A stretch of DNA of 64,000 nt from positions 2,272,001-2,336,000 of the forward strand of contig CBDETY010000003.1 in NCBI GenBank assembly GCA_965243025.1. The letters run 5' to 3'. Below the pieces are notes generated by a model. The model worked only from the letters and a program-made list of their open reading frames with translations. It made no database searches and was not told the origin of the DNA. A program made the translations under genes and the position numbers. This stretch comes from Candidatus Latescibacterota bacterium. GTDB taxonomy: Bacteria > Latescibacterota > UBA2968 > UBA8231. Of the stretch, positions 7,189 through 62,145 are shown piece after piece (the stretch's first letter is position 1; the number at the start of each line of letters is the position of its first letter).

Positions 7189-7214
7189 CCAATCCCCTGC
7201 GGGACACCCAAACC

Positions 7215-7250
7215 AGCCCCCGGAATCGGTCCTGTTCCGGGGGCTTTTGT
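7215..7250 (+). terminator. Intrinsic terminator between convergent genes
   Basis: AGCCCCCGGAA-loop-TTCCGGGGGCT followed by TTTGT. Confidence 0.75.
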
Positions 7251-7330
7251 ATTCCGGAAACACAACCGGAAGACAGGTACAGGGGATTCACCAAACCGCC
7301 GCCACCCGGATCCGGCCAGGGCCGAGCCTG

Positions 7331-8101
7331 CTATATCGCGGTCCAGCCGCCGTCGACGTACAGGGTCTGCCCGGTGATCAGGCCGGCCGCGTCGCTGGCG
7401 AGAAACACCGCGGCCCCGGTGACGTCCCCGGGCATGCCGACTCTTCCCATGGGAATGCGGGCGAGCAGGTCCTGCCTGATGTCGGGGTCGTCGAAAGAAG
7501 ACTGGGTCAGCGCGGTGAGGATGAAGGTGGGGCCGATGGCGTTGACGTTGATGCCGTAGGGGGCCCACTCGATGGCCAGCACCCGGGTCAGGTTGACGAT
7601 CCCGGCCTTGCTCGAGCAGTAGGCGGCGCGGTTGTAGTAACCGACGGCCCCCATGATGCTGGCGATGTTGATGATCCTGCCGCCGCCGGCATCCTTCATT
7701 CTGCGGCCCATCCGCTGCGACAGGAAGAACGGCCCCTTGAGGTTGACCCCGAGGATGCGGTCCCAGTCCTCCTCGGTGACGTCGAGGGCCGCGGCCGGCG
7801 CGTTGACCCCGGCATTGTTGACGAGGATGTCGACGCGGCCCATCTCCCCGAAGGCGGCTTCGGTGAAGGCGTCGATGCTGTCGAGGTCGGGCAGCTCGAG
7901 GGGAAGGGGCAGGGCCTTCCTGCCGGCGTCCCGCACCGACTCGCAGACCGGGTCGAGGTCCCCCATGCGCCCGGGAAGCTCGCCGAGCACGCAGTCCGCC
8001 CCCGCCGCGGCCAGGGCTCCGCCGAGGGCGCTGCCGATGCCGCCGCCGGCCCCGGTCACGACGGCGACCTTGCCGTCGAGCCGCATCGAGAGGTCGGTCA
8101 C
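7331..8101 (-). CDS. SDR oxidoreductase (gluconate 5-DH/KduD-like)
   Basis: TGAGGGIG, NNAG, YCSSK, C-terminal VDGG; GTG start overlaps the upstream stop. Confidence 0.9.
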   Translation of the reverse strand: MTDLSMRLDGKVAVVTGAGGGIGSALGGALAAAGADCVLGELPGRMGDLDPVCESVRDAGRKALPLPLELPDLDSIDAFTEAAFGEMGRVDILVNNAGVNAPAAALDVTEEDWDRILGVNLKGPFFLSQRMGRRMKDAGGGRIINIASIMGAVGYYNRAAYCSSKAGIVNLTRVLAIEWAPYGINVNAIGPTFILTALTQSSFDDPDIRQDLLARIPMGRVGMPGDVTGAAVFLASDAAGLITGQTLYVDGGWTAI

Positions 8102-9012
8102 TGTCCCTCCTCCTGCTCCGGATAGCGCACCTCCACTCCCATGACCTGCTCCCACACCTTGATCATCGCCCCCTTGCTCTCCTCTCCGAAGCCGCGGGCA
8201 AGGGCCGTCTTGTAGGTCTGCATCGCCGCCGAAGCGACCGGCAGGGGCACCCGCAGGGCGTCGGCGTTCTCCATCACCGTCTTCATGTCCTTGAAGGCGG
8301 CCGCCATCGGGTAGCCCTCGTCGAACACCCCCCTGAGGGCGCGCTCGGAGAAGTAGTCGAAGCCGAAGCTCTGCCCCGAGCCCGAGCCCACCGCCAGGCG
8401 CATCTTCTCCGGGTCGAGGCCGAGGCGCGCGGCGAACGGGAGCATCTCGGCCATGGCGGCGCAGGAGATGTTGTAGAGCACGTTGTTGGTCATCTTGGCG
8501 AGCTGGCCGTTGCCCGGCTCCCCCATGTGCAGGACGAGGCTGCCGATCCGCTCCAGGACCGGGAGCACCGCGGCGAAGGCATCCTCGTCACCCCCGACCA
8601 TCACCGTCAGGGTTCCCGCCTCGGCGCGGGTCTCCATCCCGGTGACCGGGGCGTCGAGGAAGAAGGCGCGGCGGCCGGCCAGGCGGCGGGCGGTGGCGCG
8701 GGTGTACTCCGGGTGGGTTGTGCCGCAGTCGACGACGATGTCCCCCTCCTCCAGGGAGGCGAAAAGCCCCCCTTCCCCGAACACCACCTCGTCGACCGCA
8801 TCGGCGTCCGGCAGCGAGAGCAGGATCCGGTTGCAGGTCGCGGCTATATCGGTGACATTGTCAGCCGCCCCGGCGCCCCTGGCGGCGACCTCGGCCACCG
8901 CATCCCCGCGCAGGTCGAACACCGACGTGGGAAAGCCGCCGCAGATGTTGGCGGCCATGCGCCGCCCCATCGAACCGAGACCGATGAACCCGACTTTTTC
9001 CTTCAACCTCAT
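8098..9012 (-). CDS. NAD(P)-dependent beta-hydroxyacid dehydrogenase (3-hydroxyisobutyrate DH family)
   Basis: VGFIGLGSMG, LDAPVTG, GTLTVMVGG, GQLAKMTNN. Confidence 0.9.
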   Translation of the reverse strand: MRLKEKVGFIGLGSMGRRMAANICGGFPTSVFDLRGDAVAEVAARGAGAADNVTDIAATCNRILLSLPDADAVDEVVFGEGGLFASLEEGDIVVDCGTTHPEYTRATARRLAGRRAFFLDAPVTGMETRAEAGTLTVMVGGDEDAFAAVLPVLERIGSLVLHMGEPGNGQLAKMTNNVLYNISCAAMAEMLPFAARLGLDPEKMRLAVGSGSGQSFGFDYFSERALRGVFDEGYPMAAAFKDMKTVMENADALRVPLPVASAAMQTYKTALARGFGEESKGAMIKVWEQVMGVEVRYPEQEEGQ

Positions 9013-9063
9013 CACCCCTTTCTCTTTCCTGACGCCGACCCCGGCCGTCCCGAGCCGCCGCAC

Positions 9064-9630
9064 ATGAGCAGATTCAGGCAGTTGGACCGCACCGACCTCG
9101 ACACCGAGCAGACTCGCATCTACGACGACATCGTCGATACCCGGGGCAGCATCGACGGCCCGTTCCGCACCTGGCTGCACAGCCCCGAGCTCGCCGACCG
9201 CGCCCAGAAACTGGGGGAATTCGTCCGCTACCGCACCAGCCTGGGGCCGCGCCTGAGCGAGCTGGGGATCCTCGTCACGGCGCGCTTCTGGGACTGCCAG
9301 GTCGAGTGGACCCTGCACGAGCCGCCGGCCATCGAGGCCGGCCTCAACCGCAACACCATCGACGCGATCCGCCACAGCCAGTACCCGGAGTTCAACCGCA
9401 AGGACGAGCGCGCCGTGTACGACTACACCAGCGAGCTGCTCTACAACCGCTTCGTCCAGGACCGCTCCTTCGCCGCGGCCAACGAGGAGCTGGGCAAGAC
9501 CGGCGTCGTCGAGCTGACCGGCCTGATCGGCTACTACAGCATGGTGGCCCTGACCCTGAACGGGTTCCAGGTGCCGGTCCCCGACAACTACGCGCCCTCC
9601 CTCGTCGACTGCCCCACCTTCCGGCGCTGA
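9064..9630 (+). CDS. Carboxymuconolactone decarboxylase/AhpD-like protein
   Basis: GPFRTWLHSPELA...LGEFVRY...ELGILVTAR...EWTLH...GVVELTGLIGYY. Confidence 0.85.
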   Translation: MSRFRQLDRTDLDTEQTRIYDDIVDTRGSIDGPFRTWLHSPELADRAQKLGEFVRYRTSLGPRLSELGILVTARFWDCQVEWTLHEPPAIEAGLNRNTIDAIRHSQYPEFNRKDERAVYDYTSELLYNRFVQDRSFAAANEELGKTGVVELTGLIGYYSMVALTLNGFQVPVPDNYAPSLVDCPTFRR

Positions 9631-15837: not shown

Positions 15838-17715
15838 TCAGAAGACCAGCCGCGCCAGGCTGTGCCGGGGAAGCCTGAAGGCAACCCCGCCGTCAATCGG
15901 CTCGACCTCGAGGCTGCCGGTTTCGAACCTCGACGCCGGCAGGAAATCAGGGCTGCTCATCAGCACTCCCTCCGACAGCCCGGCCGGCTCTCCAGCGAAC
16001 GACAGCCGCACCCCTGCCGCTGCGGCCGGGCTCCGGTTGACGAGGGTGACGACCAGCCGCCCGGAAGCGGGGTCCTTCGACGCGAGGCCGTCGACCTGCC
16101 CCCCGCCGTCGCCGCGCATCGCCACCAGGCTGTTTCCCGAATGCGCCCTGAACAGGGAGAACGCCTGGCCGACAGGCGTAAGCCGGGAGGCGAACCGCTC
16201 GACGACGATCGCCCCCTCGTTCACCGGCTCGAAGTAGCAGCCGATGGTCACCCCGGCTTCCGCGGCGGTGCGGCAGAGCGAGTGCAGCATGCCCCCGGCG
16301 TAGATACCCTCGGCCACCCCGGGGGTGCGGTACCAGGAGTACCACACGTTCCACTCGTCGAAGGAGATCCCGACCTCCTTCCCGGGCGGGGTGACCGCGT
16401 CGAGCCGGGCGCGCACGTCGCGGAACCGCTGCTCGGTGCGGGACGGGGCCCCCGCGAGGCGGGCGAACTGCTCCTCCGCCTCCGCCCCGAGGTAGGTGGA
16501 CAGCTCCCGGTCGTACTGGTGCAGGGCGATGTGGTCGACGATCCCGGCCAGCGGCGGCAGCCCTTCGCTGAACCACTCCTCCCGGCGCCACTCCCCCGAC
16601 ATCACCAGCTCGAGGTCGGCGCCGGCGGCGCGCAGGGCCTCGGCGCAGGCCCGCGCCTTTTCCGCGTACTCCCGGGTGGAGTTGGGGCCCTCCATGTGGC
16701 CGTACCCCAGCTCGTTCCCCAGCGACCAGTAGCGCACCCCGTACGGTTCGGGGTGCCCCCTTTCGATGCGCAGGCGCCCCCACTCGCTCTCCTCGCCGGC
16801 GTTGCAGTACTCGACCCAGGCGGCGCATTCCTGAGGCCGGTCCCAGGCGAGGTTGAGGGAGATGAACGGCTCGGCCCCCACCTCCCGGCACAGGGCAACG
16901 AACTCGTCGATGCCGACCTCGTGAAAGTCGAAGCCGAAGCTGTGCGGCAGGGTCTCGACCTCCTGCCAGGTGTTGATCGGGGGGCGCATGTCGGTTTCGA
17001 GGAGGCCGTCCTGCCAGCGGTAGTCCCCGGCGAAGTTGCCGCCCGGCCAGCGCAGGATCGGGCAGCCGATCTCCTTGAGCAGGGCGACGACGTCGGGCCG
17101 CATGCCGTGGAAACTGCCGGCGTCGAGCAGCGACACGCTGCCGATGCGGACCTCGGCCGCCCCCTCGAAGGTGATCTCGAGGCGGGCGCCGGGATCGGCC
17201 GCCGCGGCGGTGAAGCTGAACTCGTGCGCCCCCCAGCGGTCGGACAGCTCCGCCTCCCCGGTGAACAGCGGATTGCCTCCGGAGCCCCCGGTCAGGGCGA
17301 CGGTCACGGACGGGGCCGTTCCCCTGGCCGCCACCCGCAGCCGGTACTCGCGGCCCCCTTCGAGGGGGATTCCCTCCTGGCCGATGCCGCACCGTTGTCC
17401 CGGGGCGCATCCCTGCACGAGCTGGCTGTGGATGTTGTTGTGGCGCCGGGCGCGCTGCAGGCGGCCCGTCATCCAGGGGCGGGTGTACGCGTCCTCGGCG
17501 TCGAGGGTCAGGAAGGTCTGCGGGGGGCCGATCCGGTACCACTCCATGGCGGCGCCGCTGAGCTGCTGCGGCTTGCCGGCGAACTTGCGGTTGCGGACCA
17601 GCTGGGAGCAGAGGCCGCGCCAGGTGCAGCTGCGGGTGTGCTCCAGGTTGTGGCCGAACAGGAGCGGCTCTATGCGCGCCCCCGCGGCCCCGGGATCTAT
17701 CGAAAACTCCGTCAT
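15838..17715 (-). CDS. GH51 alpha-L-arabinofuranosidase
   Basis: LFGHNLEH, LRWPGGNFA, YWSLGNE (acid/base), SFDEWN (nucleophile). Confidence 0.9.
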   Translation of the reverse strand: MTEFSIDPGAAGARIEPLLFGHNLEHTRSCTWRGLCSQLVRNRKFAGKPQQLSGAAMEWYRIGPPQTFLTLDAEDAYTRPWMTGRLQRARRHNNIHSQLVQGCAPGQRCGIGQEGIPLEGGREYRLRVAARGTAPSVTVALTGGSGGNPLFTGEAELSDRWGAHEFSFTAAAADPGARLEITFEGAAEVRIGSVSLLDAGSFHGMRPDVVALLKEIGCPILRWPGGNFAGDYRWQDGLLETDMRPPINTWQEVETLPHSFGFDFHEVGIDEFVALCREVGAEPFISLNLAWDRPQECAAWVEYCNAGEESEWGRLRIERGHPEPYGVRYWSLGNELGYGHMEGPNSTREYAEKARACAEALRAAGADLELVMSGEWRREEWFSEGLPPLAGIVDHIALHQYDRELSTYLGAEAEEQFARLAGAPSRTEQRFRDVRARLDAVTPPGKEVGISFDEWNVWYSWYRTPGVAEGIYAGGMLHSLCRTAAEAGVTIGCYFEPVNEGAIVVERFASRLTPVGQAFSLFRAHSGNSLVAMRGDGGGQVDGLASKDPASGRLVVTLVNRSPAAAAGVRLSFAGEPAGLSEGVLMSSPDFLPASRFETGSLEVEPIDGGVAFRLPRHSLARLVF

Positions 17716-17870
17716 GCCTGCCTTCTTCATCTCTTCTCTCTTTATCGAGTACACCGGGCTCGCATCCCCGGCGTTTCTTGAGATACAGGGCGGCTATCGT
17801 TTCCTTCCACCCCCTGCCGCGAAGGCAGGCAACCTCCAACTGAAACCAGCTTCAAAAAAGGGAGACTGTC

Positions 17871-18641
17871 ATGAACTCGGAACATCCCGGCCGCGTCGCC
17901 GGCAAAACAGCCATCGTCACCGGGGCCGCCTCGGGGATCGGGGAGGCGACCGCCAGGCGGCTGGCCGAGGAGGGAGCCTCGGTCACGGTCGCCGACATCG
18001 ACGATATCAACGGCAAGCGCGTCGCCGGGGAGATCAGGGCGGCCGGGGGAAACGCCCTTTTCATCAGGACCGACCTGAGCAGGACCCCCCAGATCGAGCG
18101 CATGATCGACCGCACCGAGCAGCACTTCGGACGCCTCGACATCCTCCACAACAACGCCATCGCCTTCCAGCACGGCTCGGCAACCGAGCTCGACGAATCC
18201 GGCTGGGACCTGACCCTGAACGTCGGCCTGAAGGCGGTTTTCCTGGCGTCGAAATACGGCATCCCGGCAATGCGCCGGACCGGAGGGGGGGTCATCATCA
18301 ATACCGGCTCGGTCCACTCGCTCGTCAGCTTCGCCACCTGCACCGCCTACGACTCGGCCAAGGCCGGAATCCTCGGGCTGACGCGGGTCCTCGCCCTCGA
18401 CTACGGCCCCGACATCCGCGTCAACGCGGTGCTGCCCGGGGCCATCCTCACCCCTTTGTGGGACAACCTCGAGGTGCCGGAGAAGGAGCGGCAGCGCTAC
18501 GCAGACATGGTGCCGGCCAAGCGGCTCGGCAACGGCGACGACATCGCCAACGCCGTGCTCTTCCTGGCGTCGGAGGAAGCCTCGTTCGTCACCGGCACCC
18601 ACCTCGTCGTCGACGGCGGGATGCTCTGCCGCGCCGAGTAG
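17871..18641 (+). CDS. SDR oxidoreductase
   Basis: TGAASGIG, NNA, YDSAK, VVDGG. Confidence 0.92.
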   Translation: MNSEHPGRVAGKTAIVTGAASGIGEATARRLAEEGASVTVADIDDINGKRVAGEIRAAGGNALFIRTDLSRTPQIERMIDRTEQHFGRLDILHNNAIAFQHGSATELDESGWDLTLNVGLKAVFLASKYGIPAMRRTGGGVIINTGSVHSLVSFATCTAYDSAKAGILGLTRVLALDYGPDIRVNAVLPGAILTPLWDNLEVPEKERQRYADMVPAKRLGNGDDIANAVLFLASEEASFVTGTHLVVDGGMLCRAE

Positions 18642-18767
18642 GAGCCTCCCGGTCCCGGGTGTATGGGCGGCATTCCCGTCCGAACGGGGAGGCCCCCGTT
18701 CTCCGCTTGAAACCCGCTCGCCCGGCCTCCGGCCCGCAAGCCAGCCCTGCCCGCCCGGAGGCACAGG

Positions 18768-20639
18768 CTAACGGCCGTCCCGGAGGAGGGTCAGAACCTG
18801 GTTGGCCGCCACCCCGGACAGCTCCTGCACCGCCCCGTCCGGCCAGCGCACCCTCAGCAGGTCGACCTCGGGAGCCGGCCCCAGGCCGAAGTGCAGGCGG
18901 GTGTCGTCCTGGGACAGGTAGCTGCCGCCGGCGCGCACCTCCCGGACCATCCGCAGCCTTCCCGCCCAGGCCGTCACCCGCGCCCCGACCGCATGGGTGT
19001 TGGGGCCCCGGTCCCTGAGCCGCAGAATCAGCCAGTTGCCGCGGCCGCCCCCGTCGTTGCGCAGCAGGGTCGGGGCGGCGTCGAGGTTGGAGACGGCGAT
19101 GTCGAGGTCGCCGTCGCCGTCGAGGTCCCCGAGGGCGGACCCGCGGCTCGACAGCTCGACCTCGAACCCGGGGCCCGAAAGCGGCGAGACGTCGATGAAG
19201 CGCCCCGCACCGGTGTTCTCGTAGAGCTGGTTGGGCTGGCGGTACCTCGTCCCGAGGCCGCCGCGGTCGACCGCCGGGAAGACGTGCCCGTTGGCGACGA
19301 ACAGGTCCTCGTCGCCGTCGTGGTCGCAGTCGAAGAAACCGGCCCCCCAGCCCAGGTACGACAGGCTCGACAGCCCGAGTCCGGCCTTCCAGCTGACGTC
19401 GAGGAAGCCGGCGGGGCCGCGGTTCTCGTAGTAGGTGTTGTGGTCGTGGGAGAAGTTGGTGACGAAGAGATCGAGGTCCCCGTCCCCGTCCGGGTCCCCG
19501 GCGGCAACCCCCATTCCCGACTGCTCCCGCCCGTCCTTCTCGAAGGCCGCCCCGGCGGCGACGGCGATGTCGACGAACCGACCCCCGTCGTTGCGGTAGA
19601 GCACGTTCGGGGTCGAGTCGTTGGCGACGTAGACGTCGAGGTCGCCGTCGTCGTCGTAATCCCCGGCCACCGCGCCGAGGCCGTAGTACTCGTACTCCCG
19701 CAGGCCGGCCTCGTCCCCGGCCTCGGCGAAGACCCACCCGCTTTCCGGCCCCTCGTTGCGGAAGTAGCTGTCCCTTGCCCCGGGCAGCCCGTTGGGCCCG
19801 CAGAACACGTCGGTGAGCCCCCGCCAGTTGCAGTAGGCGTCGCGGTCCTCGGGGACGAAGCCGGGATCGAAGTCGACGTAGTTGGCCAGGTAGAAGTCGA
19901 GGTCGCCGTCGCCGTCGTAATCCCCGAACGCTGCGGCAGACCCCCATCCGGGGTGGGCGACTCCGGCGGCCCCGGCGACCTCCCGGAAGCGCTCCCCTTC
20001 GTTCCGGTAGAGGGCGTTGGCCCCGTAGTTGGCGAGGTACAGGTCGACGCGTCCGTCGCCGTCCCAGTCCGCCGCGGCGACCCCCATGCCCCAGCCGGCG
20101 TGGGCGGCCCCGAGCTCGCCGGCGGCCTCTGCGAAGCGCCACTCCCCGCGGTTGCGGTACAGGGAGGCGCGCGGCTCCTCCCCCTCGGGGAAGCCGCCGA
20201 GGCGGGAGCCGTTGGCGAAGAAGATCTCGAGGTCGCCGTCGCCGTCCTGGTCGAACAGTGCGACCCCCCCGGTGGTGCTCTCGACGATATGCTTCTTTTC
20301 GGCGCCGCCGCCGATTACGGGAATTGTGAGCCCCGACTCGGCGGCGACGTCGACGAAGCGGGCGGGCCCCTCCCCGGGGGCCGCCGAACCGGGGAAACGG
20401 GCCTGGTCCCGGGCAATTGCAGGCCGGGCGAAAAGGTCCGCGGCTGCAACGACAGCTTCCGCCCCGGCGGCAACGGCTGTGCCATGGGGAGAACCGGACC
20501 GACCCGGGGGCACCCGCGTTCCGGAAGAGGGGTCGGACGCTCCCGCCTCAGATCCCGCTCCGGGGGCACCGGCTGCGGCAAGGACGATTCCGAGAAGGGT
20601 CAGCTTCGCGCAAGGAGCCGCGGCCCTGCTCCTGTCCAT
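18768..20639 (-). CDS. CRTAC1/ASPIC-UnbV family protein (FG-GAP repeats)
   Basis: Repeated DxDxDGDLD motifs; C-terminal GGSYLSQDDTRLHFGLG...VRWPDG. Confidence 0.9.
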   Translation of the reverse strand: MDRSRAAAPCAKLTLLGIVLAAAGAPGAGSEAGASDPSSGTRVPPGRSGSPHGTAVAAGAEAVVAAADLFARPAIARDQARFPGSAAPGEGPARFVDVAAESGLTIPVIGGGAEKKHIVESTTGGVALFDQDGDGDLEIFFANGSRLGGFPEGEEPRASLYRNRGEWRFAEAAGELGAAHAGWGMGVAAADWDGDGRVDLYLANYGANALYRNEGERFREVAGAAGVAHPGWGSAAAFGDYDGDGDLDFYLANYVDFDPGFVPEDRDAYCNWRGLTDVFCGPNGLPGARDSYFRNEGPESGWVFAEAGDEAGLREYEYYGLGAVAGDYDDDGDLDVYVANDSTPNVLYRNDGGRFVDIAVAAGAAFEKDGREQSGMGVAAGDPDGDGDLDLFVTNFSHDHNTYYENRGPAGFLDVSWKAGLGLSSLSYLGWGAGFFDCDHDGDEDLFVANGHVFPAVDRGGLGTRYRQPNQLYENTGAGRFIDVSPLSGPGFEVELSSRGSALGDLDGDGDLDIAVSNLDAAPTLLRNDGGGRGNWLILRLRDRGPNTHAVGARVTAWAGRLRMVREVRAGGSYLSQDDTRLHFGLGPAPEVDLLRVRWPDGAVQELSGVAANQVLTLLRDGR

Positions 20640-53039: not shown

Positions 53040-53168
53040 TCAGGGCGTTTCTTCGATGTCGTCGACCGCCTCTCCCACCACCTCCATGCCGTCCTGCCCG
53101 GCAAGGAACTCCCTGACGGTTTCCCGCAGCATTTCATGGTCGTCTTCCAGTACTACTCGGATGGTCGT
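53040..53168 (-). pseudogene. Truncated NarL-type receiver-domain remnant
   Basis: TTIRVVLEDDHEMLRETVREFLAGQDGMEVVGEA then stop; ACG where the paralog at 61096 has ATG. Confidence 0.7.
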
Positions 53169-53239: not shown

Positions 53240-55984
53240 TCAGTGCCGCACGAGCTGATAATCCCGCGCGTACACGAAGTCGTCGTCGTGGTCGCTGTTG
53301 TGACATTCCAGACAGGTCCGTTCCGACGGAAGGCGCCGGACCGTCTCGCTGGAAGGACGCTCGATATGGATGCTTCCAGGTCCGTGACAGACCTCGCACT
53401 GCACGTTTGCCAGGCTGCGGTCCGGTTCGAGAATCGAGAACCCGCTGTCGCGGTTCAGCCCGGCCACGTGGCATTTCACGCACTTGGAAAACTGGTGGCG
53501 GTGCGCGTCGAGCAGGGTCGTATAGGCATCGGCGTGCCGGGTCGACTGCCACTGTTCCCACTGCGCCGAGTGGCAGGTACGGCATTCCTGCGTCCCCACG
53601 TACTTCCTCTCGTCGTGAACCGGGTCCCACTCGAAGAGCGGCGGGATGTTTCCTTCCAGCAGCTCCTCCTGTTCGGCCACGGACCGGTAGTAGGAATCGA
53701 GGTAGGCTTTCATGTCCTCGTCTTCGCGCATCTCGTACAAGGCCAGCAGGTAGTTGCCCTCGAACGAGGTGAATCGGCCCTCTCCATCTATGCCGATATC
53801 GACGTGATGCAGGCCGTACACGTCTGCGTTCGCGTAGATGACCAGCACGTCGTCGAGGAAGCCGTACATCGATTCAGTCCGCTTTCCCCCCTGGCCGTCG
53901 GCGCGTATCACGTCGAGGGCGGGGGCGTGGTGCCCGGTGGTGATGACCAGGTCCAGGGCCGGGAACTCCTGCACCAGGTCATGGACGAGGCCGGTGTTCA
54001 GCTCGCCGATGACCCCGACGAAGTCCGCCTGCTCCCTCAGCCCGGGCAGGTATTCCCGTACCGTCTCCTTCGGGTCGGCTGTCTCCAGGTCCCGGGTGTT
54101 GTCTTCATACAGCGAGGGCTCGATGGCCACCGTCGCCTGCAGCAGACCAATGAAAGCGATCGTGTACGGTCCCACCTCGATGGCGTACGTCGGCGCGCCG
54201 ACGAGGGAACCCTCGTGGTACAGGTTGGCGTTTATCAGGGGCACGGGACTGTTGCGGGCCTGGGTCCGAAGAAACTCGCTGCCGTGGTAGGTCTCGTTGC
54301 GCGCGATGACGGAAAAGCCGTACTCCATCCGCCTCAGCCCTCCGAGGTAGGTCGCCAATTCGCTTTCCGTCAGGGCGTCCATTGCCGGAACGTCCTGTTC
54401 GTGGGGAAAGGCGTTTCCGGCATCGATGACGGCCACGCTCCTGCGCCTTTGTTTTATCTGGTCGATGAGGGTGGCGCGGCGGGTGATCCCGCCCGACATG
54501 TTGGACTTGCAGCCGCAGGCTTCGAGAAAGCTCCTCGTTTTTCCGGTCACGATCAGGGTGATCGTGTCTACCGCGGTCTCCGACCGCGACCACGGCAGGC
54601 GGGGCGGTTGATCACCGGGCACCGGACCGTCGGCGTGCCACAGAGGCTCCGGAGGAGGCGAACCGGGGCCGGGGTTGGTGCGTTCGTACAGCGCCGACAG
54701 AAGATCGGCGCCGGCGACCCGCTCGATCGCGCCTCCCAGATCGACGCCCTCCCGTCGCCAGTAGGCGTACTCCAGAACGTCCTGCAGATCCTGTTCCCCG
54801 TCCGTGCTCCTGGAGATCTGCATATCGAGGTAATGGGCGAGGGCCAGGCCGCTGTGCCTTATCAGCGACTCTTTGGCGGCGCTGTGCGTGTAGTAAGTCT
54901 CCGGGACGATTCCCTTGCTGAAGTGGGACACCCGGAAGCGGTTGTGATTCCTGTACGCTTCGTACAGGTACGGCTCCAGATCGGAAATGACCCCGTGCTT
55001 CCGCAGGCCCTGGAGACCCAGGTACATGCTGGCCCCTTCCACGAACCAGAAGTCGGATGCCTGGGCCAGTTCCATGCGGTGGGGGGCGTGCCGCAGCCAT
55101 CGGTAGGCGATGCGGGTGGCCACCGAGAGCCACCTTCCCGGGGTGGCCGGCTCCATTTCCCCGGCTTGGCCATAAGACGTGCTTGGAATGTGAATGCTCA
55201 TTCCATCCGCCGTCTTGGGGGTCAGAATGACCGTGTACGGTTCTGGAACCGGCGCCTGCAGGGCCCTCGTCATGTACTCGTAGAGGCTCCATGCTCTTCT
55301 GGCCAGCTCCTCCTGCCGTGCGCTCGACCACCCGTCGTACAGCACAACGCGCACGGGAGCCGTCCCGATGGTCATCTCTCGCGCGGTCAATGCGCCCAGG
55401 GCTACTGCGCCGTTGACCAGATCCTCCAGGCCGGTGCCGTACAGGCGCGGTTCGTACGTGCCGGCTTCACCCTTGGCCGGGATCCAGGTGGTCTCGACGG
55501 CCCAGCCTCCGGGTCCCTGGATCGAAACCGCAATGTGATCGAACTGCCCATAGGGAACGAGGAAGAGGTTGCGGCCGGAAACGAGATGGAAATCCTCCCC
55601 CAGGTAGCCGCTGACCTCGGTGGAATGGCGCCCGTGCCCGCCGCCGATCGGCCGTCCCGGCCGCACCCGGTACTCGGCGCGCAGCTCGCTGCCCGGCGCC
55701 TTCACGCGGTAGGTCGTCCGGCCGGTGGCCGATACCCGTTGCGCATGCGGAACGGGCCTGGCCTCGGAGTCGCGGAGTTGCAGCCCCGTAACGCCGATGT
55801 ACGGGTCGGCCTCGAAGGCCTGCAGAAAAACGGAATCGGCCTCGATGCCGCTGATCCTCAACCCGACCGCTACCGACTCCGCGTCAGGCGATTCTACTTG
55901 CACTTGGTACGCGAGCCGCAGGCCCGGGTCCGAGCAGGCGGAGAAAAGCAGCACGGCTGCGGGGAGGAAGCGAGAAAGGATCAT
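53240..55984 (-). CDS. Lipoprotein fusion: HExxH-less M61 peptidase-like + UshA-like (CGC) + tetraheme cytochrome c554-like domain
   Basis: Lipobox LFSAC; WFVEGASMY and LDMQI M61-like blocks; EACGC...GGITRRAT...IDAGN; CRTCH, CVKCH, CEVCH, CLECH. Confidence 0.8.
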   Translation of the reverse strand: MILSRFLPAAVLLFSACSDPGLRLAYQVQVESPDAESVAVGLRISGIEADSVFLQAFEADPYIGVTGLQLRDSEARPVPHAQRVSATGRTTYRVKAPGSELRAEYRVRPGRPIGGGHGRHSTEVSGYLGEDFHLVSGRNLFLVPYGQFDHIAVSIQGPGGWAVETTWIPAKGEAGTYEPRLYGTGLEDLVNGAVALGALTAREMTIGTAPVRVVLYDGWSSARQEELARRAWSLYEYMTRALQAPVPEPYTVILTPKTADGMSIHIPSTSYGQAGEMEPATPGRWLSVATRIAYRWLRHAPHRMELAQASDFWFVEGASMYLGLQGLRKHGVISDLEPYLYEAYRNHNRFRVSHFSKGIVPETYYTHSAAKESLIRHSGLALAHYLDMQISRSTDGEQDLQDVLEYAYWRREGVDLGGAIERVAGADLLSALYERTNPGPGSPPPEPLWHADGPVPGDQPPRLPWSRSETAVDTITLIVTGKTRSFLEACGCKSNMSGGITRRATLIDQIKQRRRSVAVIDAGNAFPHEQDVPAMDALTESELATYLGGLRRMEYGFSVIARNETYHGSEFLRTQARNSPVPLINANLYHEGSLVGAPTYAIEVGPYTIAFIGLLQATVAIEPSLYEDNTRDLETADPKETVREYLPGLREQADFVGVIGELNTGLVHDLVQEFPALDLVITTGHHAPALDVIRADGQGGKRTESMYGFLDDVLVIYANADVYGLHHVDIGIDGEGRFTSFEGNYLLALYEMREDEDMKAYLDSYYRSVAEQEELLEGNIPPLFEWDPVHDERKYVGTQECRTCHSAQWEQWQSTRHADAYTTLLDAHRHQFSKCVKCHVAGLNRDSGFSILEPDRSLANVQCEVCHGPGSIHIERPSSETVRRLPSERTCLECHNSDHDDDFVYARDYQLVRH

Positions 55985-56016
55985 GCCGGTTTTCTCCTGC
56001 GTTCTCTTTTCCCGTT

Positions 56017-56601
56017 CTATATGGATGGACCGAGAAGCGCTTCGATCACCGCGGCCACACTGTCCGCGGCGGTCACCACCCCGCGCTGCTCCAGGTGGAT
56101 CGTCCCATCGCGAGCGACGAGCACCGACAGGGGAATTCCCTTGTCGACGCCATACTGTCGCAAGAGGCTGGTGTCCGCGGTGGCGGGCATCAGGATCGGG
56201 TAGGGGACCTCGAGGTTCTCGACCCACAGCTCCACCGCGAGACGGGTGGAGGATACGGCTATCCCCCATACATCCAGCCCGCGTTCCCGGTACCGGGTGT
56301 AAAGGTCGTTGAGGACCGGCTGTTCCTCCCGGCAGGGACCGCACCAGGTAGCCCAGAAGTTCAGGAGCAGCACCTTGTCCCGTTGCGCCGGGACCTTCAG
56401 GGTGTCGCCGCCAAGCGAGGCAATAGCAAAGCCGGGAGCTGTTTTGCCGGGCGCTGATTTAGCCGGCGCGGGTGGCTCCTCGGCAGCGGGTGCGCAGGAA
56501 TGCAAACAGGCCGCCAACCCCAGGCATGAGAACGCACGGGCGATTCTGCCGAGCTTTATCCAGGCGGTGTTTCGGGGCGGCCTGTTTTGGCGCGTCTTCA
56601 T
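56017..56601 (-). CDS. TlpA/ResA-family thioredoxin-like lipoprotein
   Basis: APGF...LLNFWATWCGPCREE.P; YGV..GIP.SVLV.RDG. Confidence 0.9.
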   Translation of the reverse strand: MKTRQNRPPRNTAWIKLGRIARAFSCLGLAACLHSCAPAAEEPPAPAKSAPGKTAPGFAIASLGGDTLKVPAQRDKVLLLNFWATWCGPCREEQPVLNDLYTRYRERGLDVWGIAVSSTRLAVELWVENLEVPYPILMPATADTSLLRQYGVDKGIPLSVLVARDGTIHLEQRGVVTAADSVAAVIEALLGPSI

Positions 56602-56603
56602 TC

Positions 56604-56693
56604 TCAGAACGGATACACCCGGTCGCCGCCATGCCCGAGGACGGAGTCCATGCCGAACAAGGCGATTACGGCTGAAAGAAGGACCACATGCAT
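56604..56693 (-). pseudogene. 29-aa truncated fourth copy of the CBM9-like gene
   Basis: MHVVLLSAVIALFGMDSVLGHGGDRVYPF then TGA; nearly identical to the starts at 57652 and 58621. Confidence 0.8.
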
Positions 56694-56701
56694 GGTCAAA
56701 C

Positions 56702-57652
56702 CTATTGCGAGAAACTCGCCTTGATGCGCGCCCACGAGTCGGGTGCGACCGCGGTACCACCACCACCACCACTGTCGACGCCGTTCGCCGAAAGCAGAAT
56801 GCCATCCATCATGACAACGTGGTCCCTAATACGACCCTCATCGTAGTGCCCGACCATATGAGTTTCTCGCGCCCTATTGCTGCCCGGCCCATGGGTGGCA
56901 GGCTCATCGAAATCGCCTACAAACACCTGAAACCCGACAATCCGTCCCGCACTCAGATCCGAGACGACGCTGTTTTCCGGCTCCCTCCGGATCAACAGGT
57001 CGAACGGGGTGACGAAGAACTCGGTGATCCAGACAACTGGATTTTCCCCGACTACGGAGCCGCCACCGTCTCCATAGGGAGGATATCCCCACCAGTTCTC
57101 ATCCCACCACATTTCCAAAACAGACAGGCCAACGTGGGAAGTCTCTCGACGAAGCGGCACAGCGCTGTAGAATTGGGACCCTTGACCCATCAGTCCGGAA
57201 TCTTCCCCCTTGTCGTCACGTCTGGCAACGCTTTCATCCCATCCCGGTGAACCGTCATGATCACCATCGACTTCAATGGAGAGATGATCCTCGCCCTCTC
57301 GGTCAAAATAATTGTCAGACTTTTCATCCTCTCCCACATAAACGTCATCTATGCAGATGGCGCCTACATAGATCCGGTTGGAAGCGTCGTTCCATCCCAG
57401 CCAGATTCGAAAATCGAGGTCGGACGGATTGTATCCCGTCACCCATTTGTCTCGGTCGAACGCCGTGAAGTCCAAGCTCGTGAGGGAAGGCTCCCCGAAC
57501 AGCTCCTCCCAGTCTTCTATGGATCCATCGGTCACGTCGATCGCGTTCTCGTCGGTTATCTCGTAGAACGGATACACCCGGTCGCCCCCGTGCCCGAGGA
57601 CGGGGTCCATGCCGAACAAGGCGATTACGGCTGAAAGAAGGATCACATGCAT
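56702..57652 (-). CDS. Secreted acidic CBM9/DOMON-like protein, copy 3
   Basis: Signal peptide; DG..EDW, DFRIWLGWND..RIYV, VDGDHDG, DL.AG.IVGF...DFD; C-terminal TAVAPDSWARIKASFSQ. Confidence 0.75.
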   Translation of the reverse strand: MHVILLSAVIALFGMDPVLGHGGDRVYPFYEITDENAIDVTDGSIEDWEELFGEPSLTSLDFTAFDRDKWVTGYNPSDLDFRIWLGWNDASNRIYVGAICIDDVYVGEDEKSDNYFDREGEDHLSIEVDGDHDGSPGWDESVARRDDKGEDSGLMGQGSQFYSAVPLRRETSHVGLSVLEMWWDENWWGYPPYGDGGGSVVGENPVVWITEFFVTPFDLLIRREPENSVVSDLSAGRIVGFQVFVGDFDEPATHGPGSNRARETHMVGHYDEGRIRDHVVMMDGILLSANGVDSGGGGGTAVAPDSWARIKASFSQ

Positions 57653-57661
57653 GACAGCCTC

Positions 57662-58621
57662 CTATTGCGAGAAGCTCGCCTTGATGCGCGCCCACGAGTC
57701 GGGTGCGACCGCGGTACCACCACCACTGTCGATGCCGTTCGCCGAAAGCAGAATGCCATCCATCCAAGTATCGGTGTCACCAATAACGTCACGAAGAGTG
57801 CCTCCGTAATAGCTACCCAACACATGAAGTTTTCCCGCTCTATTTCCACCAGGCCCACTGATTGCCGGCTCGTCGAAATCTCCGATTGACACACGGAACC
57901 CGACAATCTGCTCCGCACCCAGATCCGAGACGAGGCTGTTTTCCGGTTCCTTGCGAATCAACATGTCGAACGGGGTGACGTAGAACTCCGTGACCCAGAC
58001 CACGGGATTTTCTCCGGCGACCGAGCCGCCACCGTTCCCGTATGGAGGGTATCCCCACCAGCTCTCACCTTCAAAAAAGGTCTCGAAAAAAGGAATTCCG
58101 ACGTTTGACGCTTCACGGCGAACCGGTACCCCCGAATAGACTTGCGCCGCCTGACCGTATTTTCCGGAATCGTCGCCTTCGTCAAGATTGACCTCATCCC
58201 ATTGCGGGAAACCGTCATGATCGCCATCAATCATAAGAGTCACCGAATCCTCACCCTGACGCTCCAGGTACTTAAAAGATCTTTCCTCCTCGCCTATGTA
58301 CCTGTCGTCAATGCAGATAGCGCCTATGTAGATGCGGTCGGAAGCCCCGTTCCAGCCCAGATAGATGCGGAAGTCGAGATCGGACGGGTTGTATCCCATG
58401 CTCTCACCACTAAGGAAGTAGGAGTCGAACCCGGTGAAATCCAGGCTCGTGAGGGAAGGCTCCCCGAACAGCTCCTCCCAGTCTTCTATTGTTCCATCGG
58501 TCACGTCGATCGCGTTCTCGTCGGGTATCTCGTAGAACGGATACACCCGGTCGCCCCCATGCCCGAGGACGGGGTCCATGCCGAATAAGGCGATTACGGC
58601 TGAAAGAAGGATCACATGCAT
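57662..58621 (-). CDS. Secreted acidic CBM9/DOMON-like protein, copy 2
   Basis: Same architecture and tail; GGAGG RBS. Confidence 0.75.
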   Translation of the reverse strand: MHVILLSAVIALFGMDPVLGHGGDRVYPFYEIPDENAIDVTDGTIEDWEELFGEPSLTSLDFTGFDSYFLSGESMGYNPSDLDFRIYLGWNGASDRIYIGAICIDDRYIGEEERSFKYLERQGEDSVTLMIDGDHDGFPQWDEVNLDEGDDSGKYGQAAQVYSGVPVRREASNVGIPFFETFFEGESWWGYPPYGNGGGSVAGENPVVWVTEFYVTPFDMLIRKEPENSLVSDLGAEQIVGFRVSIGDFDEPAISGPGGNRAGKLHVLGSYYGGTLRDVIGDTDTWMDGILLSANGIDSGGGTAVAPDSWARIKASFSQ

Positions 58622-58630
58622 GGCAGCCTC

Positions 58631-59587
58631 CTATTGCGAGAAGCTCGCCTTGATGCGCGCCCACGAGTCGGGCTTGACCGCGGTGCCACCGCCGTCGATG
58701 CCGTTCGCAGGGAGCAGAATGCCATCCATCCAAGTATCGGTGTCACCTAAAGCGTCACGAACAGTGCTTCCGTGATGGCTACCCAACACATGAGGTTTTC
58801 CCGCAAAGTTTCCACCCGGCCCATTGACAGCCGGCTCGTCGAAATCTCCGATTGTCACTCGGAACCCGACAATCTGCTCCGCACCCAGATCCGAGACGAG
58901 GCTGTTTTCCGGTTCCTTGCGAATCAACATGTCGAACGGGGTGACGAAGAACTCCGTGACCCAGACCACGGGGTTTTCGCCGGCGACCGAGCCGCCACCG
59001 TTCCCGTACGGAGGGTATCCCCACCAGTTCTCACCTTCGAAATAGGTCTCGAAAAAAGGAATTCCGACGGTTGACGTTTCACGGCGGACCGGTACCCCCG
59101 AATAAATTTGCGCCGCCTGATCATGTTTTCCGGAATCGTCGCCTTCGTCAAGATTGACTTTATCCCATTGTGAAGAACCGTCGTGATCGCCGTCAATCAA
59201 AAGAGTCACCGAATCCTCACCCTGACGCTCCAGGTAGCCGAAAGATCTTTCCTCCTCACCTATGTACTCGTCGTCGATGCAGATGGCGCCTATGTAGATT
59301 TGGTCGGAAGCCCCGTTCCAGCCCAGATAAATGCGGAAGTCGAGATCGGACGGGTTGTAATCCATGCTCTCCCCGGAACTCTGGTAAGAGGTAAAACCGG
59401 TAAAATCCAGGCTCGTGAGAGACGGCTCTCCGAAAAGCTCTTCCCAGTCTTCTATCGATCCATCGGTCACGTCGATCGCGTTCTGGTCGGGTATCTCGTA
59501 GAACGGATACACCCGGTCGCCGCCATGTCCGTGGGCGGCGCCGAAGCCGAATAAGGCGATTACGGCTGAAAACAATATGATGCCCAT
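58631..59587 (-). CDS. Secreted acidic CBM9/DOMON-like protein, copy 1
   Basis: GAGGAGG RBS before ATG 59587; very similar to copy 2; tail TAVKPDSWARIKASFSQ. Confidence 0.75.
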   Translation of the reverse strand: MGIILFSAVIALFGFGAAHGHGGDRVYPFYEIPDQNAIDVTDGSIEDWEELFGEPSLTSLDFTGFTSYQSSGESMDYNPSDLDFRIYLGWNGASDQIYIGAICIDDEYIGEEERSFGYLERQGEDSVTLLIDGDHDGSSQWDKVNLDEGDDSGKHDQAAQIYSGVPVRRETSTVGIPFFETYFEGENWWGYPPYGNGGGSVAGENPVVWVTEFFVTPFDMLIRKEPENSLVSDLGAEQIVGFRVTIGDFDEPAVNGPGGNFAGKPHVLGSHHGSTVRDALGDTDTWMDGILLPANGIDGGGTAVKPDSWARIKASFSQ

Positions 59588-59625
59588 GGCTCCTCCTCGT
59601 CTGGTGTTTAGGACTCGGGAAATGG

Positions 59626-59657
59626 AAGCAGGGGGCGCTGCGCGGCGCCCCCTGCTT
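59626..59657. terminator. 13-bp perfect stem-loop after the Cys-rich peptide gene
   Basis: AAGCAGGGGGCGC-TGCGCG-GCGCCCCCTGCTT; only a weak U-tract in the minus (transcribed) direction. Confidence 0.7.
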
Positions 59658-59735
59658 TTGTGTGCAGGCGATCCAATCATCAGAGGGTCCGAACCCTCAC
59701 CGATCATTGAATCGGCTTGCTTCGTCGCTCTCTTG

Positions 59736-60026
59736 CTAATCGCAGAGGCTGTCGTGGCAACCACCACCACCACCATCGCAAGGCTGGCAGTTCAATGCGA
59801 GAGTCTCGGGGATGCAATCTCCGCTACCTGCGCAGATCTGGTAGTCGCAGGAGGCCGCCGCCGGGGGCACCAGCAAGGGCTCCAGGGCTGCGTACGGCCC
59901 CGAGTTGGTCTCCGTCCCGGTGAACGGGATGAAGGCGAACACCACCCACACGGCCAAGGTGGCGACGAACGCCGCCAGACTGCGCGGCAGGATGAGCCGC
60001 GGCAACGTCGCGATGAGGTCTTTCAT
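59736..60026 (-). CDS. Small membrane-anchored protein with C-terminal 7-Cys peptide (precursor-like); alternative GTG start 60224
   Basis: TM SLAAFVATLAVWVVFAFIPF, linker ending PPAAA, core SCDYQICAGSGDCIPETLALNCQPCDGGGGGCHDSLCD; GGAG before ATG 60026 and AAGGAGGT before GTG 60224. Confidence 0.65.
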   Translation of the reverse strand: MKDLIATLPRLILPRSLAAFVATLAVWVVFAFIPFTGTETNSGPYAALEPLLVPPAAASCDYQICAGSGDCIPETLALNCQPCDGGGGGCHDSLCD

Positions 60027-60308
60027 GGTCTTTCGTTCTCCAGTTGAGAATGATTGCGAGTTTTGGCTCCTCTTGGGTGCCCACGGGGCAGCGGCGTGCG
60101 CGTTACCGTTTTTCTTCTCCTTTCCCATGCCCTGGATTTTCTCCCTCCCAGCTCCCGGTGTAGCCTTCGGGATGCCGCGTCGTATCGCGGTGCGGTGTAC
60201 TTCCTGTCGGGCGTTGACGGCCACGGGACGTGACCTCCTTTCCGAGAGCCTTTGGGGGCCTTTCGTTTGTCTGAGAACGAAGATCGCACCGGACAGACGG
60301 CTCCGGTA

Positions 60309-60352
60309 TCACCCGAACGGGTACATTTTTGTCACCCGAAAGGGTACATTTT
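60309..60352. promoter_or_regulatory. Tandem 21-bp repeats with internal palindrome, candidate NarL/LuxR operators
   Basis: TCACCCGAACGGGTACATTTT (60309-60329) and TCACCCGAAAGGGTACATTTT (60332-60352). Confidence 0.7.
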
Positions 60353-60460
60353 CCGAAAAATGGGGGGATTTGCCCGGAAAAACCGGGTTTGCGGGGCTCG
60401 GGACTGCCTGCGGAATTGGCGCCGAACCCGGAAAGGGAGTGACTGCCGCGAAGAGGGCAG

Positions 60461-61096
60461 CTACAGCGAGGTGAGCCCGGTGCTGATCGCGTACCTGGTC
60501 AAAGCGGCAATGCTGTGCAGGTCGAGCTTGTCCATGATGCGTTTCCGGTACGTGTTGACGGTGTTATCGCTCAAGTTCAGTCGTTTGGCAATTTCCGCTG
60601 TCTTCAAGCCCTTGCTGATGAGCCGTACCACCTCGCGCTCCTGCGCGCTCAGTTTCGGGTGGCCGGCAAGGGTCTGCACCTGGTCGTACACGGCCCCGGC
60701 CAACTCCGGGCTCAGGTAGGTGCCGCCGGCGAGGGCCGCCCGGGCGGCCCGCATCACCTCGGCCCCGGTCCGGGCGGCCCCTTTGACCACGTACCCCGAG
60801 GCCCCCGCCTCCAGCATGCCGGCGACGAAGTGCGGTTCTTCGTGCATCGACAGGGCTACCACCTTCACCTCCGGGGCCTGGGCGAGGATCTGGCGCGTCG
60901 CCTCCACCCCGCTCAGGTCGGGCAGGGCTACGTCCATGACCACGATGTCGGGCCGGCAGGCCGCGGCCTGCTCCACCGCGGTGCGCGCGTCCCCGGCTTC
61001 GCCCACCACCTCGAACCCGTCGTCCTGCGCGAACCTGGCCCTCAACGCCTCGCGCATCAGCTCGTGATCGTCCACCAGCAAAACCCGGATCGTCAT
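60461..61096 (-). CDS. NarL/LuxR-family response regulator
   Basis: VLLVDDH, PDIVVMD, GASGYVVK, LSAQEREVV...EIAKRLNLS.NTV.TY...IMDKL. Confidence 0.93.
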   Translation of the reverse strand: MTIRVLLVDDHELMREALRARFAQDDGFEVVGEAGDARTAVEQAAACRPDIVVMDVALPDLSGVEATRQILAQAPEVKVVALSMHEEPHFVAGMLEAGASGYVVKGAARTGAEVMRAARAALAGGTYLSPELAGAVYDQVQTLAGHPKLSAQEREVVRLISKGLKTAEIAKRLNLSDNTVNTYRKRIMDKLDLHSIAALTRYAISTGLTSL

Positions 61097-62145
61097 CGGG
61101 AACTCTCCTTTTTCTCGAGCAGCGAGGAAGGAATCGCCAGCACGCAACGCGTGCCCTGCCCCGGCGTCGATTCGATGTCGAAGGAGCCGCCGGCCTGCCT
61201 CAGGCACTCGCCGATGCTGAACAGGCCGAAACCGGTCCCCTGCCGGGGGTCCTCCGGAGAAGGATCGAAGCCGCGGCCGCGGTCGGCGACCGCCAGGCTC
61301 AGTCCGGTCCCGTCGCGGCGCAGGGACACCGCGGCCGCGTCCGTGCCGGCGTGCCGGACGACGTTGAGCAACAGCTCGCGAAGGCAGCGGAACAGCGTAG
61401 CTCGCAGACCTTCCTCCGCCACCTCGCAGTCCCCCTCGCATACCAGGCTGACCCGCAGCCCGTGCTCCTTCTCGAGCTGCCCGGCCAGCGAGTGCAGAGC
61501 GGCGACGAGCCCGTAGTAGTGGAGCTCGGGCGGACTGAGATCGAAAACCAGCGTGCGCAGTTCTTCCATCGTCCGCTCGAGCAGGCCGTCTATGTCGTGG
61601 AGCAGGGTCTGGCGTTCCTTCTCGTCCGCCTGCCGCAGGTCCTCGATCTTCATCCGCGACGCGGCCAGGGTCTGGCCGGCGCGGTCGTGCAAGTCGGCGG
61701 CAATGCGGCGGCGCTCGCGGTCTTCGACGGCGACCAACTCCGCCACCATGCGCCTTGCCTCGGTGACGTCGCGGACGATGCTCTGGTAGCCGCGGACGCT
61801 GCCGTCGGCGGCGCGCCGCACCACGTTGGTCAACAGGCAGTCGAGGCGGCGCCCGTCCCGGGTTACGAAAACGACCTCGTAGTCGCGGACGTACCCTTCG
61901 CGCTCGATCCTTTCCTGGTAGCGGGCGCGGTCTTCGGGATTGGCGTAGACGCCGAGGATGTTCATGCCGAGGAACCGTTCATGGGGCCAGTCGAACATTT
62001 CGCTCGCCGCGTGGTTGGCTTCGAGGATGGTCCCGTCGCGCGCGGTGACTATCATGGCGTCGTGGCACTCCTCGAACAGCTGGCGGTAATCCTCCGCGTT
62101 CAGCCGACCGCTCCCTTTACTCCGCTGTCGCTTCTGCCCACTCAT
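61093..62145 (-). CDS. Cytoplasmic PAS-domain histidine kinase (HisKA_3)
   Basis: PAS, ERRRIAADLHD, ELLLNVVRHA, DRGRGF, GFGL; no TM segment; ATGA overlap with the regulator. Confidence 0.92.
   Translation of the reverse strand: MSGQKRQRSKGSGRLNAEDYRQLFEECHDAMIVTARDGTILEANHAASEMFDWPHERFLGMNILGVYANPEDRARYQERIEREGYVRDYEVVFVTRDGRRLDCLLTNVVRRAADGSVRGYQSIVRDVTEARRMVAELVAVEDRERRRIAADLHDRAGQTLAASRMKIEDLRQADEKERQTLLHDIDGLLERTMEELRTLVFDLSPPELHYYGLVAALHSLAGQLEKEHGLRVSLVCEGDCEVAEEGLRATLFRCLRELLLNVVRHAGTDAAAVSLRRDGTGLSLAVADRGRGFDPSPEDPRQGTGFGLFSIGECLRQAGGSFDIESTPGQGTRCVLAIPSSLLEKKESSR

Follow-up and report, generated by a model that had tools for sequence, protein, structure and literature searches.

A 64,000-nucleotide stretch of contig CBDETY010000003.1 from a Candidatus Latescibacterota bacterium (hereafter the window) encodes on its minus strand a small exported Cys-rich protein and a heme-bearing lipoprotein fusion, which together are a horizontally mobile module. 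Fusion and small gene, the latter recognized by a PY.SAL motif and a six-Cys frame, were adjacent in 9/16 full-length fusion loci, and by their labels the paired records fall into at least four phylum-level groups (Gemmatimonadota-like, Acidobacteriota, Eisenbacteria and Poribacteria). Our preferred reading, to which we assign a probability of about 0.45, is that the module would act as a cytochrome-linked thiol–disulfide oxidoreductase on the small six-Cys protein, with a dead M61 peptidase fold for docking and a TlpA-like protein as intermediary or proof-reader.

An earlier note, made from the DNA alone, had treated the whole minus-strand run from 53240 to 62145 as one system. All of the genes and DNA signals that it listed are present there with unchanged coordinates. 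The lipoprotein and the small protein proved to be conserved as a unit; the kinase and regulator and the genes of the CBM9 fold did not prove to be conserved parts. Coordinates are window positions throughout, and genes in fetched loci were called with our own scripts, based on GC content at third codon positions (GC3) or on stop-to-stop open reading frames (ORFs), and not with an annotation pipeline.

The lipoprotein fusion and its relatives

The fusion consists of an M61-like domain (approximately residues 18–465), a CGC motif (residues 490–492) and four CxxCH heme-binding motifs at residues 801, 835, 863 and 891. A database search returned 41 relatives at identities down to 27%, and about 38 of these were full length; the relatives included a Gemmatimonas record. 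In an alignment of 25 homologs, E488, C490, G491, C492 and all four CxxCH motifs were invariant and the lipobox Cys was nearly so, with the CGC and at least four CxxCH present in 25/25. The pairing of CGC and hemes suggested by the earlier note is therefore borne out at the motif level, as the CGC is invariant, and replaced by CGU in some relatives (below), beside four invariant heme motifs. The window protein holds 11 Cys, of which one belongs to the lipobox and eight bind heme, so that the two of the CGC form the sole free thiol pair.

The N-terminal domain, previously described as a pseudo-M61 peptidase, does have the M61 fold. It was modelled with a pLDDT of 89.8, and its best Foldseek matches were the M61 structures 4fgm, 7xyo and 8j9c (E 5e-22 to 7e-19); the family profile reached 7xyo at 1e-5. 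Peptidase_M61_N (PF17899) matched the window fusion weakly, with 20.5 bits under a gathering score of 23. At E ≤ 0.01 PF17899 matched 13 of the 25 homologs and PF05299 three, and a Protein Data Bank (PDB) search with the single N-domain sequence gave a chance match only. The HExxH zinc-binding motif was absent anywhere in the aligned homologs (0/25). By its predicted model the domain resembles the M61 glycyl aminopeptidases (7XYO, 8J9C, 4FGM) in the two-lobed M1/M61 fold; in contrast to these, the fusion lacks HExxH and the domain forms the N-terminal part of a heme lipoprotein.

In the remainder of the protein, the fusion profile matched 5'-nucleotidases at 1e-16 to 1e-19 and cytochrome c554 (1bvb) at 1e-18, and the c554 family PF13435 scored 60.2 bits in the window fusion against a cut-off of 20.8. 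Compared with the 5'-nucleotidase 5h7w the metal motifs have been lost: GD is changed to GN and GNHE to ARNE, and ACGCK fills the first motif region. The top PDB sequence match of the fusion, the nonaheme cytochrome OcwA (6i5b), covers the heme part only and was set aside. An M61 fold without HExxH and a UshA fold without its metal ligands therefore make the fusion a protein of two dead hydrolase folds and four hemes, and at the level of aligned motifs both catalytic metal sites are shown to be lost.

By sequence, the C-terminal half lies near a family that is already catalogued and uncharacterised. The UshA-like (seleno)protein model NF041198 was covered in full by the C-terminal ~440 residues, at 215.8 bits, which misses the curated cut-off of 275. 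Both carry a C-x-C/U site close to the N-terminal end of the UshA fold, with c554-type hemes at the C-terminus. The window protein differs in carrying Cys in place of selenocysteine, in its extra 465-residue M61-like domain and in its partner small protein. In the accessible portions of the two sources, the family (the COG0737 CxU selenoprotein of the Global Ocean Sampling survey) is tabulated without a function (PMC2398784, PMC13188914).

Shorter relatives without the M61 domain were examined at 15 loci where the open frame starts just past the CGC position. An in-frame TGA, giving PCGU, was found in 14/15 (L051, L053–L056, L063, L065, L070, L073, L083, L095, L098, L105 and L117); the 15th sequence ends at the locus edge before this position. 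The PCGU relatives are likely selenoproteins of the UshA-like family. Relatives of ~950 residues (L035, L037, L038, L047–L049 and L015–L030), found in the same class and in Latescibacterota records, have the UshA/heme module at the N-terminus and further domains after it. Matches to DsbA, GILT or thioredoxin-like Pfam families fell at one common place in 17 of the 18 that were scanned, and CPYG and CxxC motifs were conserved in this DsbA-like region of the four inspected. A UshA/heme module joined to DsbA-like domains in some proteins and to a peptide-binding fold in others, and with selenocysteine in some cases, points most simply to heme-coupled thiol–disulfide chemistry. Literature searches found no account of the M61-fused architecture, the partner small-protein family or the DsbA-fused relatives.

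The small Cys-rich protein and its pairing with the fusion

The earlier note had described a membrane-anchored peptide with seven Cys, and the 96-residue ORF, with its hydrophobic N-terminal segment, agrees with this. Its seven Cys lie in a C-terminal domain, and the protein stops one residue past the last of them. A 162-residue reading from the GTG at 60224 is not conserved in the sister locus L032, where the extension is closed, and was therefore dropped. Neither Pfam nor NCBIfam had a match to the protein. Small ORFs of this kind share a common layout, in which a basic hydrophobic N-terminus is followed by PY.(S)AL and a Cys-rich end. A profile built from eight family members found beside full-length fusions gave 35 matches at E ≤ 0.001 in 1.84 billion representatives, 32 of which were 74–118 residues long and covered the full profile. 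The resulting 38-row alignment has an invariant Tyr, the PY.SAL leader, an A.A motif ahead of the first Cys, and between four and six Cys that align, the last at or just before the C-terminus; mean column identity is 22%. The nearest ESM Atlas clusters were unnamed proteins of 88–90 residues from Acidobacteriota and Eisenbacteria, which at scores < 0.9 serve as a lead only.

A conserved leader followed by a variable core with a six-Cys frame, as seen in the 38 rows, is the pattern of a precursor of ribosomally synthesized and post-translationally modified peptides (RiPPs). Bufferins are Sec-exported Cys-rich RiPP precursors; like them, the small proteins combine an N-terminal export signal with a Cys-rich variable core and occur as several precursor genes per genome. 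In contrast to bufferins, the module lacks an enzyme of the MNIO/DUF692 type, and its candidate enzyme would be extracytoplasmic and heme-linked. It is conceivable that, outside the cytoplasm, the fusion adds a link other than a disulfide (a thioether, a Cys–Tyr bond or another oxidative cross-link), with removal of the leader as the next step. The leader (invariant Tyr, PY.SAL, A.A) and fixed Cys frame would fit such maturation, as would the terminator-like hairpin 3' of the precursor gene, the several genomes in which many scattered precursors face few enzymes (9 versus 4) and a peptidase-fold domain that could serve in leader recognition. However, the module has no conserved exporter or leader protease, its peptidase domain is inactive by motif and the DsbA-like fusions of the relatives point to plain thiol–disulfide chemistry, and we judge this explanation very unlikely.

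The position of the last Cys bears on a different explanation. In the Sox pathway SoxYZ is the carrier, the hemes of the SoxAX cytochrome form S–S bonds on SoxY, and SoxB belongs to the 5'-nucleotidase family; the present module likewise combines, in the periplasm, a UshA-family fold and c-type hemes with a small protein that bears Cys. By analogy, the small protein could be a swinging-arm carrier with a sulfur or selenium species bound covalently to its C-terminal Cys, and the heme/CGC enzyme would oxidize or reduce this adduct in an inorganic sulfur or selenium pathway, in place of a role in protein folding. Nearly all members do end at or next to a Cys, often after a Gly-rich stretch (GGGGGC or SGGGTC), the enzyme unites the folds or cofactors of SoxB and SoxAX, selenocysteine occurs in the relatives and there is a rhodanese gene close to the G004 locus. 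Six conserved Cys are nevertheless suggestive of structural disulfides, and a Cys domain with so low a column identity would be unusual in a carrier whose active-site motif is fixed. The SoxY-type GGCGG motif was present in none of the 38 family members, SoxB-type metal ligands have been lost, and no other sox or sulfur-oxidation genes are conserved around the module. A Sox-like carrier is thus unlikely in our estimation.

Co-occurrence of fusion homologs with small Cys-rich ORFs, which the earlier note had made the touchstone of its proposal, was found both between neighbouring genes and at the level of genomes. The 16 loci surveyed for adjacency are all of the full-length fusion loci that could be examined; five records were searched as whole genomes. 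At L031 and L032, from the same genus as the window, the small gene lies 5' of the fusion with one CBM9-fold paralog and the thioredoxin gene between them. It is found 3' of the fusion, at a distance of 103 nt, in another genus (L033), at 121 nt in another family (L034, which has a second copy elsewhere in the locus), at 29 nt in Acidobacteriota (L040, with a second candidate behind), at 167 nt in Eisenbacteria (L042) and at 106 nt in Poribacteria (L044). On contig C81 of G065 it precedes the fusion by 87 nt. At L045 and L046 the fusion is accompanied by a Cys-rich ORF with a signal peptide that lacks the PY motif. L039, a fusion on a 4.7-kb contig, is not among the adjacent pairs, L043 has no small gene beside its fusion, and the contigs of three further G064 fusions are without one. 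Among the genomes of 61 relatives the small gene was found in five and the full-length fusion in four, all within those five. The small-protein profile matched no ORF in the loci of the non-M61 relatives.

The flanking genes were different at every locus, and the GC content of the module was below that of its surroundings, both of which fit a mobile island.

The earlier note had also placed a WCGPC thioredoxin in the system, and a TlpA-like gene was adjacent to the fusion in 5 of 12 scanned loci. In the window this protein has the TlpA/ResA/DsbE fold as judged by Pfam, with Redoxin and AhpC-TSA above cut-off, together with a WCGPC motif and an export signal. It stayed below the NCBIfam equivalog cut-offs for ResA (94/170 bits), TlpA (53.6/230) and DsbE (57.5/123).

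Two of the loci hold further small genes. At L034 (G047; 6791–9623 and 16686–19615) both copies of the small gene precede a TPR protein of ~800 residues with an identical end sequence, and a DDE transposase gene lies between the two small-gene/TPR sets, which represent a different local set of partners. At L040 the strand opposite the fusion encodes, just 5' of it, another small secreted ORF (3276–3731, minus strand) that is rich in Cys, Gly and Lys with CAGANSCKGKGEC-type repeats and had no Pfam match at E ≤ 0.001.

Proposed function of the module

We favour the oxidoreductase reading because relatives of the UshA/heme half have selenocysteine in place of the second Cys of the CGC (PCGU) or are joined to DsbA-like domains. 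In such a mechanism the CGC would exchange thiols and disulfides with the small protein itself or by way of the TlpA-like thioredoxin, which may act as intermediary or proof-reader. The four hemes would presumably pass electrons in one direction or the other, to or from the respiratory chain, and the dead peptidase domain would be the likely docking site for the leader. The module would thereby have a dedicated role in folding or redox-cycling the small protein. In the window, the PAS kinase and NarL-type regulator probably drive the operon through a tandem operator that is unique in the genome, and a hairpin would let the small gene be expressed above the rest of the operon. Complex prediction for fusion residues 18–914 and small-protein residues 36–96 returned ipSAE values of 0.02 and 0.05, which we counted neither for nor against binding.

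DsbA–DsbB/VKOR and TlpA/ResA with CcdA are envelope systems that generate or reduce disulfides, and couple a thiol–disulfide relay to the electron-transport chain. The module likewise has an extracytoplasmic thioredoxin-fold partner with a WCxPC motif, and relatives are joined to DsbA-like domains. In contrast to Dsb/VKOR, the proposed engine would be a UshA-fold CxC/CxU site with four c-type hemes and no quinone-reducing membrane protein, and it appears dedicated to one small-protein family.

Several observations weigh against this function or against a tight pairing of the two proteins. TlpA-type proteins are usually reductants, and an oxidase model fits them poorly. The DsbA-like Pfam matches of the ~950-residue relatives are mostly below gathering score, which 3/17 reach. 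The four co-occurrences among the 61 relatives cannot be counted as independent events because the genomes represent only three genera. G001, which is 93% complete, has an orphan small gene among insertion-sequence-like genes and no fusion was found in it. Acidobacteriota genome G064 carries nine small genes and four fusions, all on different contigs, G061 has two small genes away from its fusion, and whole-genome searches of G062 and G063, which have fusions, found no small gene of the PY.SAL family. Adjacency is therefore not universal. The dispersed small genes are solitary and their surroundings have nothing in common, an arrangement that resembles enzymes serving many dispersed precursors, and a looser association would fit as well.

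Taken to its end, such a looser association would make the fusion an independent periplasmic electron-transfer enzyme and the small proteins Dsb-folded secreted effectors that merely share mobile islands with it. Stand-alone small genes are frequent, either gene occurs without the other, and the module lies in low-GC3 regions bearing transposases, all of which this explanation would accommodate. It does not readily account for genes that are immediately adjacent (29–167 nt) in either order in distant phyla, for the presence of a small gene in all four fusion genomes among the 61 relatives, or for the failure of the small-protein profile to match any ORF near the non-M61 relatives, and we regard it as quite unlikely.

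If the oxidoreductase reading is correct, the module would provide a new route to make or break disulfides outside the cytoplasm and would bring to light, in uncultured soil bacteria and sponge associates, a family of small secreted proteins rich in disulfides. The UshA-like CxU selenoproteins, catalogued since a 2008 ocean survey and listed without a function in the sources consulted, may gain a testable role as heme-linked thiol/selenol oxidoreductases for envelope proteins from three observations: joining to DsbA-like domains, joining to a dead peptidase, and pairing with the small six-Cys family. A bolder version of the proposal, which we consider doubtful, is that the UshA-fold CxC/CxU site and the four c-type hemes constitute a new extracytoplasmic enzyme that generates disulfides (or cross-links peptides) without DsbB/VKOR or quinones, with the PY.SAL/six-Cys proteins as its leader-guided substrates. 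If true, Sec-exported knotted peptides that mature in the periplasm would form a new class, made by uncultured symbionts and soil bacteria.

Neighbouring genes and expression signals

The features of the run are collected in Table 1. Pfam and NCBIfam gave names to four genes of the window, those for the kinase, the regulator, the thioredoxin-fold protein and the lipoprotein. The last five genes, in the order P1, P2, P3, thioredoxin and fusion, are separated by spacers of 9, 9, 100 and 32 nt.

Table 1. Genes, remnants and DNA signals of the minus-strand run in the window (aa, amino acids)
Feature	Position	Strand	Details
PAS + HisKA_3 + HATPase_c histidine kinase, soluble, 350 aa	61093..62145	-	Pfam PAS 5e-18, HisKA_3 9e-12, HATPase_c 2e-13
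NarL/GerE-type response regulator, 211 aa	60461..61096	-	Pfam Response_reg 6e-25, GerE 1e-17; start overlaps kinase stop by 4 nt
Tandem 21-nt direct repeats, candidate operator	60309-60329 and 60332-60352	.	Each with palindrome ACCCG-AA-CGGGT
Leader block 5' of the small gene	60070..60125	-	Alignment with two same-genus loci
Small exported Cys-rich protein, 96 aa	59736..60026	-	Hydrophobic N-terminus, GPYAAL, 7 Cys
GC-rich hairpin directly 3' of the small gene	59626..59657	-	16-nt arms, 94% complementary
CBM9-fold secreted paralog P1, 318 aa	58631..59587	-	
CBM9-fold secreted paralog P2, 319 aa	57662..58621	-	Model pLDDT 80.4, Foldseek
CBM9-fold secreted paralog P3, 316 aa	56702..57652	-	
Remnant, first ~30 codons of a fourth CBM9-fold paralog	56604..56693	-	88% identity to residues 1-32; two TGA
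TlpA/ResA-like thioredoxin-fold protein, 194 aa	56017..56601	-	WCGPC, lipobox-like LAAC; Pfam AhpC-TSA 9e-18, Redoxin 6e-17
Lipoprotein fusion, 914 aa	53240..55984	-	M61-like fold, UshA-like domain, four hemes
Response-regulator 5'-end remnant, 35 aa	53061..53165	-	63% identical to the N-terminus of the cluster regulator

The HisKA_3 kinase and the adjacent REC–GerE regulator have the make-up of a NarL-type two-component pair. As members of a conserved system, the role that the earlier note gave them, they could not be upheld: the pair is found at 1/12 fusion loci, that of the window, and homologs of the kinase and regulator are absent from the 11 others scanned. The tandem palindromic repeats that had been pointed out 5' of the small gene are present, are 95% alike and lie 23 nt apart. 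The strict ACCCG-AA-CGGGT motif has only these two copies in the 6.8-Mb genome and was absent from the other loci compared, including the region 5' of the small gene in sister loci. The pair probably acts as a local regulator through this candidate operator, outside the conserved module.

A leader block, AACGG..A.GCGC.CG...CTG.CCCGTG.GCA, lies ~50–100 nt 5' of the small gene in the window, L031 and L032. It has been kept in these three same-genus loci although their coding regions are just ~50% identical, and it matched no Rfam family. The single Rfam match on the stretch was sub-threshold, to proV RNA inside the fusion coding region (28.9 versus 88.5 bits).

The strong stem-loop reported after the small gene was also recovered, and an equivalent hairpin was seen in 5/5 folded loci. 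In the window the 151-nt spacer past the small gene folds at −64 kcal/mol (z = −4.8), and none of 200 shuffled sequences was as stable. A hairpin stands 3' of the small gene in the window, L031, L032, L033 and L044, whatever the gene order, with a clear U-tract in L032. A generic promoter and terminator scan left the hairpin at 59626–59657 unflagged, and returned no more sites than in shuffled sequence. Judged from these folds, the hairpin is probably a partial terminator or a transcript stabilizer.

Three secreted CBM9-like paralogs are present between the small gene and the thioredoxin gene, as had been noted, and their predicted fold is that of CBM9. They are mutually 73–87% identical, and none had a Pfam match (E ≤ 0.01, including CBM9_1 and CBM9_2) or an NCBIfam match. 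The top Foldseek matches of the P2 model were 1i82 (E 2e-8, target TM-score 0.70), 7nwn and 7nwo, followed by the heme-binding subunits NxrC (7B04) and EbdC (2IVF). The paralogs are thus alike in predicted fold to the CBM9/DOMON-like beta-sandwiches (1I82, NxrC 7B04, EbdC 2IVF). In contrast to CBM9 they lack a Pfam CBM9 match and have conserved features of their own, namely a His just past the predicted signal-peptide cut (AxA-H-GDRVYP), DGDHSGG and a C-terminal helix with the tag SWARIKAS(L/F).

The assignment of these genes to a conserved system did not hold, since they occur at 3/12 loci, all of one genus. Only in this genus do paralogs separate the small gene from the thioredoxin gene, which makes them a lineage-specific addition to the module. 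A third G002 locus has the small gene inside a paralog array with no fusion nearby. A functional link between the paralogs and the small protein is possible in that genus, going by gene order. The family itself is found in 36/36 genomes of the same taxonomic family and in 0/24 from other families of the class. In the genome of the window it has 91 near-full-length copies, spread over 60 sites in arrays of up to four; with its own C-terminal tag as well, it represents a striking lineage-specific expansion. The tag pattern [ST]W[AG]x[IVL]K[AS]x[FLY] ends 91 ORFs of the genome, of which 71 are full-length CBM9-fold members; a few other tag-bearing ORFs are different proteins of 273–657 residues. 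Because the tag is also carried by these other proteins, it may be a sorting or anchoring signal.

Outside the lineage of the window, the Eisenbacteria locus L043 encodes a 769-residue protein directly 3' of the fusion (6903–9209, plus strand) that matches DUF5916 and, weakly, CBM9_1, so that a CBM9-type neighbour also occurs there. In the window, the remnant of a fourth paralog (56604–56693) lies between P3 and the thioredoxin gene, in an ORF of 56604–56735, and ends at the thioredoxin start codon; it appears to have been left behind by unequal crossing-over among the tandem copies. The response-regulator remnant (53061–53165) stands just 3' of the fusion stop, is without a start codon and has an early stop, and may be a trace of an old rearrangement at the border of the island. 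The 8.9-kb run of 53240–62145 is also present in sponge metagenome runs.

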